Of a stretch of 64,000 nucleotides of DNA, positions 157 through 654 are shown in pieces (position 1 is the first letter of the stretch; every line of letters begins with the position of its first letter). The DNA is from Escherichia coli (GTDB lineage Bacteria > Pseudomonadota > Gammaproteobacteria > Enterobacterales > Enterobacteriaceae), in assembly GCF_044647545.1 (NCBI RefSeq), contig NZ_CP172818.1. One strand, given 5' to 3'. The notes under the pieces are model-generated. The model was not told the DNA's origin and did no database searches. It saw only the letters and a list, made by a program, of their open reading frames with translations. A program made the position numbers and the translations under genes.

Positions 157-654
157 CTACATCTGATATTTTTTATCTCTTAAAGATTCATAAATCCGTT
201 GACAAGTCACTCCTGCGATGTAGCGTTTGTCAGCAATTTCAGCATAAAGCTGAGCTTCTGCTGCAATATCTCCGAGCATGTTGGTGAGCATTCCTTCGGC
301 GGCTTTGGTTGTTTTGCCTCTGACGGCAGCGGCAAGATTTGCGGTATGCTGCGCTGCGTCAAGGCGTATGGCATATTTTGTTGCTTCGGCACGCAGCTGG
401 TTAACACTATCAGACAGATCAGCAGCCCTGGCAGAAATTTCAGCGGCTTTCTGTTGTGCATCTTTAACAGCCTCATCACGGGATATACTTCGCCCCTGTT
501 CAATTATTCGAGCAGCAAATTGGACATTTACCTCTTGAGATAATTCGGCAGCATCACGCTCCGCCCATTTTTTTTGCCATCCTCTGTCGCTCCAGACATT
601 ACCTACGACAAATCCTACCAACACGAGCAAAATCACCGTGAATATCTGATTCAC
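157..654 (-). CDS. rzpQ: Rz-like inner-membrane spanin (i-spanin) of prophage lysis cassette
   Basis: 165 aa ORF with N-terminal hydrophobic segment, coiled-coil-like A/Q/R-rich body, immediately downstream of endolysin on same strand; out-of-frame lipoprotein gene embedded. Confidence 0.8.
207..461 (-). CDS. rzoQ: Rz1-like outer-membrane lipoprotein spanin (o-spanin), embedded out of frame within rzpQ
   Basis: ORF in alternate frame inside rzpQ; signal peptide ending in lipobox LTSC, proline-rich mature part; start chosen at MHNRKPL (84 aa) is my inference. Confidence 0.6.

Follow-up and report, generated by a model that had tools for sequence, protein, structure and literature searches.

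rzoQ, a gene embedded in rzpQ of a Qin-like prophage of Escherichia coli, and its probable role as the outer-membrane subunit of an N15-type spanin

In embedded two-component spanins, the gene for a lipoprotein of the outer membrane (o-spanin) lies in another frame inside the gene for its inner-membrane partner (i-spanin), and such genes were reportedly catalogued by Summer et al. in 2007. Here we analysed a stretch of 64,000 nucleotides (nt) from Escherichia coli (contig NZ_CP172818.1 of assembly GCF_044647545.1; hereafter the window), in which an earlier note, made from the letters alone, had pointed to a lipoprotein open reading frame (ORF) nested inside rzpQ. This ORF is rzoQ, a prophage gene already annotated in E. 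coli K-12, so that the reading is correct and ordinary and not a discovery; besides the K-12 annotation, its family was catalogued among the embedded spanins in 2007 and 2018. Judging from the sequence and from the analogy with described systems, rzoQ very probably encodes the o-spanin of a two-component spanin in which RzpQ would be the i-spanin.

In the survey of Kongari et al. (2018, PMC6139136), the inner gene lies at a relative position of 0.4-0.5 to 0.9-1.0 in about 70% of the embedded pairs, and 507 of 528 known spanin pairs have a periplasmic cysteine for intermolecular disulfides. For phage N15, the survey lists an o-spanin of 84 amino acids (aa), embedded in the +1 frame at 43677..43931 and spanning 0.42-0.89 of the outer gene, the pair of 181 and 84 aa forming a singleton family (PMC6139136). 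Its tables give 116 of 146 periplasmic residues as helical in the N15 i-spanin homologue (Kongari et al. 2018, PMC6139136), and 21 helical residues in the 62-aa mature chain of the o-spanin (PMC6139136 supplementary tables). Our own extraction of the N15 o-spanin agrees with that source in start and length.

The gene pair of the window occupies the same chromosomal locus as in K-12, within a Qin-like prophage beside rspB/rspA/ynfA. In the Qin prophage of K-12 MG1655, rzpQ (b1553) lies at 1639030..1639527 and contains rzoQ (b4689) at 1639080..1639334; the offset of rzoQ within rzpQ is 50..304 in both genomes. The two RzoQ proteins are of equal length (84 aa) and identical at 80 of 84 residues, the four substitutions relative to K-12 being R2H, N5K and L6P in the n-region of the signal peptide and K28Q in the tether. 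The window is from an E. coli strain other than K-12, with about 97% identity to K-12 across the Qin region, and the best match of its first 25 kilobases (kb) among the complete E. coli genomes in the collection is 97.5%. Databases name the K-12 allele 'Putative lipoprotein RzoQ' (UniProt RZOQ_ECOLI) and 'Rz1-like lipoprotein, Qin prophage' (NCBI), and the exact RzoQ protein of the window occurs on 115 public contigs, labelled only 'hypothetical protein'. We also observed that the 90%-identity cluster holding K-12 RzoQ (84 aa) includes many lysozymes of 177 aa, one of them serving as the representative; this seems to be an artefact of the clustering, and names transferred through it could be wrong.

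The embedded frame and its conservation

The earlier note had placed an out-of-frame ORF of 84 aa at 207-461, fully inside rzpQ, and both the ORF list and direct translation bear this out. The frame runs on the minus strand from ATG at 461 to TGA at 209..207, its product ends in TSQE, and it is read in the +1 frame of rzpQ (654-461 = 193), of which it occupies the part from 0.39 to 0.90. The signal peptide that the note had described is also there: residues 1-22 form it, the lipobox LTSC spans residues 20-23 with Cys23 as the putative lipidated residue, the n-region carries the basic residues R4, K5 and K8, and the residue at +2 is Val. This is the arrangement of the rule-based lipoprotein pattern, in which K or R occurs within the first 7 residues, the h-region is free of charges and position 23 is Cys.

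The mature part of RzoQ has 62 aa and is predicted to consist of a proline-rich coil (residues 24-61) followed by a C-terminal helix (62-82). The proline-rich character claimed by the note holds, at a lower level than in lambda Rz1: proline makes up 9 of the 62 mature residues (15%) and 9 of the 38 residues from 24 to 61 (24%), and the longest run is PP (54-55). Two cysteines, Cys58 and Cys62, are conserved. An AlphaFold2 model built on an 18-sequence alignment, with a mean predicted local distance difference test score (pLDDT) of 72, shows a helical signal peptide, a coil over residues 23-61 (pLDDT 54-77) and a confident helix over residues 62-82 (pLDDT about 90). A sequence search of the PDB returned no relative with a solved structure. 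In profile searches, RzoQ was matched by PHROG 11621 'Rz-like spanin' (E 2e-8), and by no Pfam model at E<=1 and no NCBIfam model.

A tblastn search with the 84-aa product against phage records found the frame in 29 of them, at 45-100% identity, in phages of Escherichia, Salmonella, Klebsiella, Citrobacter, Enterobacter and Kosakonia. We fetched 15 of these records and aligned them by hand with the window and K-12, which gave 17 loci. At all 17, the frame is +1 relative to a DUF2514 gene, spans this gene from 0.39-0.46 to 0.85-0.91, and starts with an ATG exactly 22 codons before the lipobox cysteine (L-[TAVI]-[SAG]-C); none has Asp at +2, and in 15 of 17 the product is exactly 84 aa long. The residues M1, L20, C23, P40, P44-L45-P46-S47, Q51, C58, P60, C62, L66, L70, M73 and L74 are invariant in the 17 loci, and the invariance of the start, the lipobox cysteine and further residues holds down to 41% protein identity. 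Moreover, a scan of IMG/VR with the i-spanin alignment yielded 80 loci of 456 relatives, all 80 with an intact embedded ORF in the same ATG-to-lipobox arrangement, and the uncut copies were all 84 aa long. The PLPS motif and the C-x-P-x-C pair are likewise kept at the aligned and the IMG/VR loci. The earlier note had let its reading depend on a conserved lipobox, and the cysteine is indeed invariant in the 17 loci, with the arrangement kept in 80 of 80.

One of the aligned loci stands apart. In Salmonella phage SW-37 (L004, about 1380-1400), the i-spanin gene is frameshifted at a run of 7 A, against 8 A in its relatives (WQKKW; 568..575 in the window), and the embedded o-spanin ORF is intact. 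Possibly the homopolymer was misread in sequencing, or else the i-spanin gene of this phage is truly broken.

Regarding the start codon, the open frame of rzoQ reaches upstream to TTG 503 and contains a further ATG at 476. We rejected the longer starts (TTG 503, GTG 479 and ATG 476) as the main start, since they are not conserved and ATG 476 has the poorer Shine-Dalgarno (SD) element. Every homologue keeps ATG 461, and we take it to be the start instead of ATG 476 or TTG 503 because a stop codon sits one codon before it in 10 of the 17 loci. A minor upstream start in the E. coli clade is conceivable. The note had also let its reading depend on a translation signal at the internal start, and an SD-like element is present: a GAGG lies upstream of the rzoQ ATG in 17 of 17 loci, in 15 of them at -13..-10, that is 9 nt upstream, and in Lumpael and IME_EC2 as a GAGGAG further upstream. 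Its duplex with the 3' end of the 16S rRNA scores -5.6 kcal/mol, which 8.4% of all ATGs in the window equal or better; ATG 476 scores -1.9 kcal/mol in the same way. The element is compatible with initiation and is not strong evidence for it, because in the window the bases of the GAGG are also part of the Asp-Glu-Ala codons of rzpQ, which stand for conserved residues.

As to the claim that gene callers miss this ORF, it proved right in the records at hand. Four of the 15 fetched phage records carry no annotation, and rzoQ is listed in none of the remaining 11. In the non-K-12 E. coli genomes examined, the NCBI annotation pipeline (PGAP) gives rzpQ only as 'DUF2514 domain-containing protein' and omits rzoQ, because there is no Pfam or NCBIfam model for the RzoQ-type o-spanin family. 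Thus, the practical value of this analysis lies in annotation, and the 18-sequence alignment (A2) would suffice to seed a family model.

Selection across the overlap

The rzpQ gene is rich in Ala, Gln and Glu codons, and such genes are often open in other frames; therefore, we tested chance explicitly. As a null for the open +1 frame, we resampled the synonymous codons of rzpQ 20,000 times. The +1 frame stayed open for at least 84 codons in 11.5% of the resamplings, and an ORF of at least 50 aa running from a Met through a lipobox appeared in 1.6%. The antisense frames of the rzpQ homologues are open for 118-179 codons in all of them (median of 137 codons for frame -0). The open +1 frame alone proves nothing, because 11.5% of the resamplings are open as well and the antisense frames are open longer. 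These longer antisense frames, present in every homologue and not genes, together with the resamplings and the missing Pfam and NCBIfam matches, are what would favour a chance open frame without a functional product.

The window itself has two antisense ORFs over rzpQ, at 199..543 (+, 114 aa) and 278..538 (+, 86 aa). We rejected them as genes and regard them as a composition artefact of an Ala/Gln/Glu-rich gene, with no excess of synonymous differences.

The comparison of relatives does speak for selection. On a codon alignment of 16 i-spanin genes, the mean pairwise diversity at third positions of rzpQ drops from 0.57 outside the overlap to 0.33 within (Mann-Whitney p = 6e-13), whereas at codon positions 1 and 2 it is equal inside and outside. 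The trough of third-position diversity covers the mature part of RzoQ. From the region upstream to the overlap, the fraction of single-nucleotide codon differences that are synonymous rises from 0.16 to 0.385 in the +1 frame and falls from 0.70 to 0.455 in the rzpQ frame. Between the window and K-12, 10 nt differ in the overlap, 6 of them silent in rzoQ and 2 silent in rzpQ, and all four differences beyond RzoQ residue 28 are silent in rzoQ and amino-acid-changing in rzpQ.

By these sequence comparisons, the embedded frame is under purifying selection. It is the conservation together with the dual-coding signature, and not the length of the ORF, that leads us to regard rzoQ as real. With synonymous-site diversity nearly halved across the overlap, rzoQ/rzpQ is a clean textbook case of dual-coding constraint.

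Lysis cassette, proposed role and other explanations

The outer gene of the pair has the properties expected of an i-spanin gene. RzpQ has one hydrophobic segment, at residues 4-22 (Kyte-Doolittle 2.34), and nothing above 0.61 elsewhere; on this scale, its N-terminal transmembrane segment fits the type II inner-membrane topology of i-spanins. Its single cysteine, Cys151, is invariant and lies just past the rzoQ stop. The GTG start of rzpQ overlaps the stop codon of rrrQ by 4 nt (GTGA, 651..654), and the cassette runs in the order holin, ydfR, rrrQ lysozyme and rzpQ, with rzpQ-rzoQ as the last gene pair (Table 1). The features of the spanin class found at this locus are therefore the embedding, the lipobox without Asp at +2, the i-spanin transmembrane segment, the cassette position next to holin and endolysin, and the periplasmic cysteines. 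In that class, disruption of the outer membrane depends on both subunits, which bind each other by their C-termini, and RzpQ and RzoQ would do likewise.

Table 1. Positions in the window of the embedded gene, its outer gene and the remaining lysis cassette.
Feature	Positions	Strand	Basis or remark
rzoQ, putative embedded o-spanin gene, 84-aa precursor	207..461	-	sequence, conservation, dual-coding signature, PHROG match, AlphaFold2
GAGG, Shine-Dalgarno-like element	471..474	-	3' end 9 nt upstream of rzoQ ATG
rzpQ, putative i-spanin gene, 165 aa, GTG start	157..654	-	PF10721 (DUF2514) E 3.6e-38; PHROG 312 'Rz-like spanin' E 4e-58
rrrQ, endolysin (phage lysozyme), 177 aa	651..1184	-	PF00959 E 6e-24; annotation of orthologous locus
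ydfR, DUF1327 gene between holin and endolysin	1181..1492	-	PF07041 E 9e-51
essQ-type holin (phage 21 S family), 71 aa, ATG 1712	1497..1712	-	PF04971 E 1.5e-35

If RzoQ follows the established lipoprotein pathway, translation of the late lysis mRNA from the internal ATG would yield its precursor, which Sec would export. Lgt would then diacylate Cys23, LspA would cleave before it and Lnt would N-acylate it, and the Lol system would insert the lipoprotein in the outer membrane according to the +2 rule. By analogy with lambda Rz/Rz1 (PMC6139136), the 62-aa mature protein would cross the periplasm on a proline-rich unstructured tether of about 38 residues, and its predicted amphipathic helix of 21 residues, with an invariant stripe of L66, L70, M73 and L74, would bind the C-terminal periplasmic end of RzpQ. 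On the same analogy, homodimers may be stabilised by disulfides through Cys58 and Cys62 in RzoQ and Cys151 in RzpQ. Once the holin had triggered and the endolysin had cleared the peptidoglycan mesh, the complexes would collapse and the inner and outer membranes would fuse as the last step of lysis.

The allele is also found in phages: the sequenced phage mEp460_ev081 has a cassette with 100% identity to that of the window, and four further phage records hold an identical RzoQ, so that this RzoQ allele is more than a relic and is used in phage genomes.

Several points weigh against the o-spanin assignment. We found no experiment on RzoQ, RzpQ or the N15 gp55 pair in the searchable literature, where matches to rzoQ were text artefacts in unrelated papers and rzpQ appeared in gene lists only; for this reason, we infer the translation, lipidation, localisation and complex formation of RzoQ, as well as its requirement for lysis. 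A ribosome-profiling paper (PMC5318159) mentions rzoD and rzoR only as excluded near-duplicates. The SD match of rzoQ is moderate, within the top 8% of the ATGs of the window, and its conservation could reflect the codons of rzpQ. The analogy of mechanism rests on architecture and not on homology, because neither lambda Rz1 nor Rz is similar in sequence to the proteins of the pair. The window starts inside the prophage, and the prophage may have lost the expression of its late genes. Finally, the antisense -2 frame mirrors the synonymous signature (0.381), and the signature alone cannot separate sense from antisense. This -2 frame is interrupted by stops in most homologues. We rejected an antisense gene as the cause of the third-position suppression, the -0 frame reaching only 0.16 and the -2 mirror being geometric and broken by stops.

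Among the other explanations, the one that survives best accepts rzoQ as a real lipoprotein gene and supposes that in a Qin-like prophage it is silent or kept for use by the host, in envelope or peptidoglycan turnover or in vesiculation; a use of this kind has been proposed for the lysis module of DLP12 in K-12. It can draw on the annotation of K-12 Qin as a cryptic prophage and on chromosomal persistence: of 5426 complete E. coli genomes, 4400 give a match to a query with the lysis cassette (window 100-1300), and in 2104 the match covers 80% of the query or more. It can also draw on DLP12, whose spanin pair was studied genetically and whose S-R-Rz/Rz1 operon is conserved, transcribed and affects the production of outer-membrane vesicles (PMC7918800). 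However, selection in phages is sufficient for the integrity of rzoQ, because the identical cassette and RzoQ are found in phage records, and the sequence holds no pointer to a host role. We consider this explanation unlikely, and it concerns the timing of use and not the identity of the protein.

Less probable still is a reading in which the embedded gene encodes an outer-membrane lipoprotein that does not act as a spanin and serves, for example, superinfection exclusion or serum resistance, in the manner of Cor, Llp or Bor. Small lipoproteins of that kind are generally known from lambdoid phages, both lambda and phage Perceval carry bor just downstream of Rz, and we found no functional test of RzoQ. 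However, the genes of Cor, Llp and Bor are free-standing and not embedded in an i-spanin gene, whereas RzpQ/RzoQ replaces lambda Rz/Rz1 exactly at the endolysin junction, at a relative position (0.39-0.90) that agrees with about 70% of the embedded spanins (PMC6139136). Besides, the cassette would otherwise be without an o-spanin partner for a DUF2514 protein of i-spanin topology. As for a chance frame in this Ala/Gln/Glu-rich coiled-coil gene, the least credible of all, it is contradicted by the comparative data: the start, the lipobox cysteine, the length and eleven further residues are invariant to 41% identity, 80 of 80 loci are intact, the synonymous sites of rzpQ are suppressed specifically in the overlap, and a PHROG family of Rz-like spanins matches the product.

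Regarding the other cassette genes, K-12 essQ maps onto the holin gene of the window, which has a strong SD element (-10.8 kcal/mol) and whose product begins with MKSM, a possible dual start like that of phage 21 S. The rrrQ lysozyme shows a Gly/Ala-rich hydrophobic N-terminal stretch followed by E-x8-D-x5-T. With these features, holin and lysozyme, both assigned by Pfam family matches, may resemble a pinholin and signal-anchor-release endolysin system. A simple terminator scan found no terminator-like site on the minus strand in 1..156, downstream of rzpQ. A strong terminator-like hairpin lies at 2166..2185 (-), between cspB and the holin gene, with the sequence AAACCCGC-TCAG-GCGGGTTT followed by a T-run; it shares its strand with the lysis genes and may be the terminator overcome with the help of the prophage's Q-like antiterminator.

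Further along, the window holds cspB/cspF, the Q-like antiterminator, relBE, hokD, dicF/dicB and an integrase, and then rspB/rspA/ynfA. Rfam matches at gathering level were obtained for a cspA thermoregulator at 2451..2843 (-, 159 bits), which spans cspB and its leader, and for the DicF small RNA at 10623..10674 (+, 77 bits), both of which are expected in a Qin-like prophage. Within the first 17.5 kb, only the part at about 8900..13050 is not colinear with K-12 Qin, showing patchy matches of 90-96%; other strains have different immunity and replication genes there, and the region is a mosaic among Qin-like prophages. The IS2E segment of K-12 (locus 14846-15061) has no counterpart in the window.

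Comparison with known spanins

By sequence, RzoQ and RzpQ fall into the embedded-spanin type of phage N15 gp55 (DUF2514). To place two spanins in one family, Kongari et al. (2018, PMC6139136) ask for an identity of 40% or more across 40% or more of the periplasmic domain; against N15, the o-spanin reaches 63.5% over residues 22-84, and the i-spanin 55% with N15 gp55. The two o-spanins share the length of 84 aa, the +1 frame, the ATG-to-Cys distance, the PLPS motif, the C-x-P-x-C pair and a helix over about a third of the mature chain. They differ in the lipobox, which is LVSC in N15 and LTSC in the window, and the N-terminus of the N15 i-spanin is 16 residues longer. Within the family, RzoQ of the window and of K-12 stands out by a tether with MPYALTQ in place of the PPAWTPQ common to most members.

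The earlier note had seen the classic Rz1 o-spanin architecture, and this stands as far as architecture, predicted role and place in the cassette are concerned, and not for the sequence family. Like lambda Rz1 (PF06085) in Rz (PF03245), rzoQ is read in the +1 frame, lies completely within the distal half of the i-spanin gene and occupies the slot right after the endolysin gene; both encode an outer-membrane lipoprotein precursor with a proline-rich mature domain and periplasmic cysteine, which in RzoQ is a prediction. In contrast, the mature chain has 40 aa in lambda Rz1 and 62 in RzoQ, proline makes up 25% against 15%, and there is one conserved cysteine against two. A penta-proline stretch is the mutationally sensitive core of lambda Rz1; RzoQ lacks this run and has PLPS as its conserved core instead. 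Moreover, a confident C-terminal helix is predicted for RzoQ, whereas lambda Rz1 has been described without required secondary structure (PMC6139136).

The alignment to the Rz1 family that the note had suggested gave a negative result. Neither RzoQ nor the N15 o-spanin matched PF06085 at E<=1, with lambda Rz1 as control at 72 bits, and BLASTP was insignificant both for RzoQ against lambda Rz1 (E = 1.0) and for RzpQ against Rz (E = 1.4). On these two results for RzoQ, we rejected membership in the lambda Rz1 family. An hhalign comparison of the 18-sequence profile with lambda Rz1 gave a weak match of 23 columns (Cys-x-x-KQ...PPAW), its probability being 31%. After the lipobox, most members of the RzoQ family have Cys-x-x-KQ...PPAWTPQ, which resembles GCTSKQ...PPPPPAWIMQPPP of lambda Rz1 (L018 1087..1269). 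This likeness is a hint of either a very distant common origin or convergence.

With T4 PseT.2, RzoQ has in common two invariant periplasmic cysteines in the o-spanin; for PseT.2, an intramolecular disulfide has been described that isomerises to intermolecular links (Kongari et al. 2018, PMC6139136). Unlike the pair of the window, the T4 pair has separate genes; the two pairs are unrelated in sequence, and the T4 i-spanin has no periplasmic cysteine whereas RzpQ has one. Tentatively, and with considerable doubt, we suggest that o-spanins of the N15/RzoQ type could use a junction unlike that of lambda Rz1. In such a junction, helix 62-82 and the distal helix of RzpQ would pair as a heteromeric coiled coil, and C58-x-P-x-C62 would isomerise from intra- to intermolecular disulfides as proposed for T4 PseT.2. 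The RzpQ helix in question is encoded by the same nucleotides as RzoQ helix 62-82, in the other frame. Were this true, the two sides of a protein-protein interface would be encoded in a single stretch of DNA, and in the E. coli clade the o-frame would be more tightly constrained than the i-frame (4 of 4 changes past RzoQ residue 28 leave RzoQ as it is and alter RzpQ).

Closer to home, K-12 itself carries rzpD/rzoD in DLP12 and rzpR/rzoR in Rac, which like rzpQ/rzoQ are nested spanin pairs of cryptic lambdoid prophages in the same host. We take these two to be lambda-type Rz/Rz1 homologues, and the Qin pair to be of the DUF2514/N15 type. The two types meet at the same place in phage genomes as well: the holin-ydfR-endolysin block of the window is about 89% identical to that of hundreds of lambdoid and Shiga toxin (Stx) phages, and for many of these the match stops at window position 651. 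In phage Perceval (L020 2650..3111), a lambda-type Rz (PF03245) with an embedded Rz1 of 60 aa follows an endolysin gene about 90% identical to that of the window. The end of the match at the endolysin/spanin junction, together with the Rz/Rz1 of Perceval, indicates that the two spanin types are exchangeable modules, and this exchangeability supports their functional equivalence. The RzoQ/RzpQ family thus offers a second, sequence-unrelated embedded spanin for comparison with lambda Rz/Rz1.

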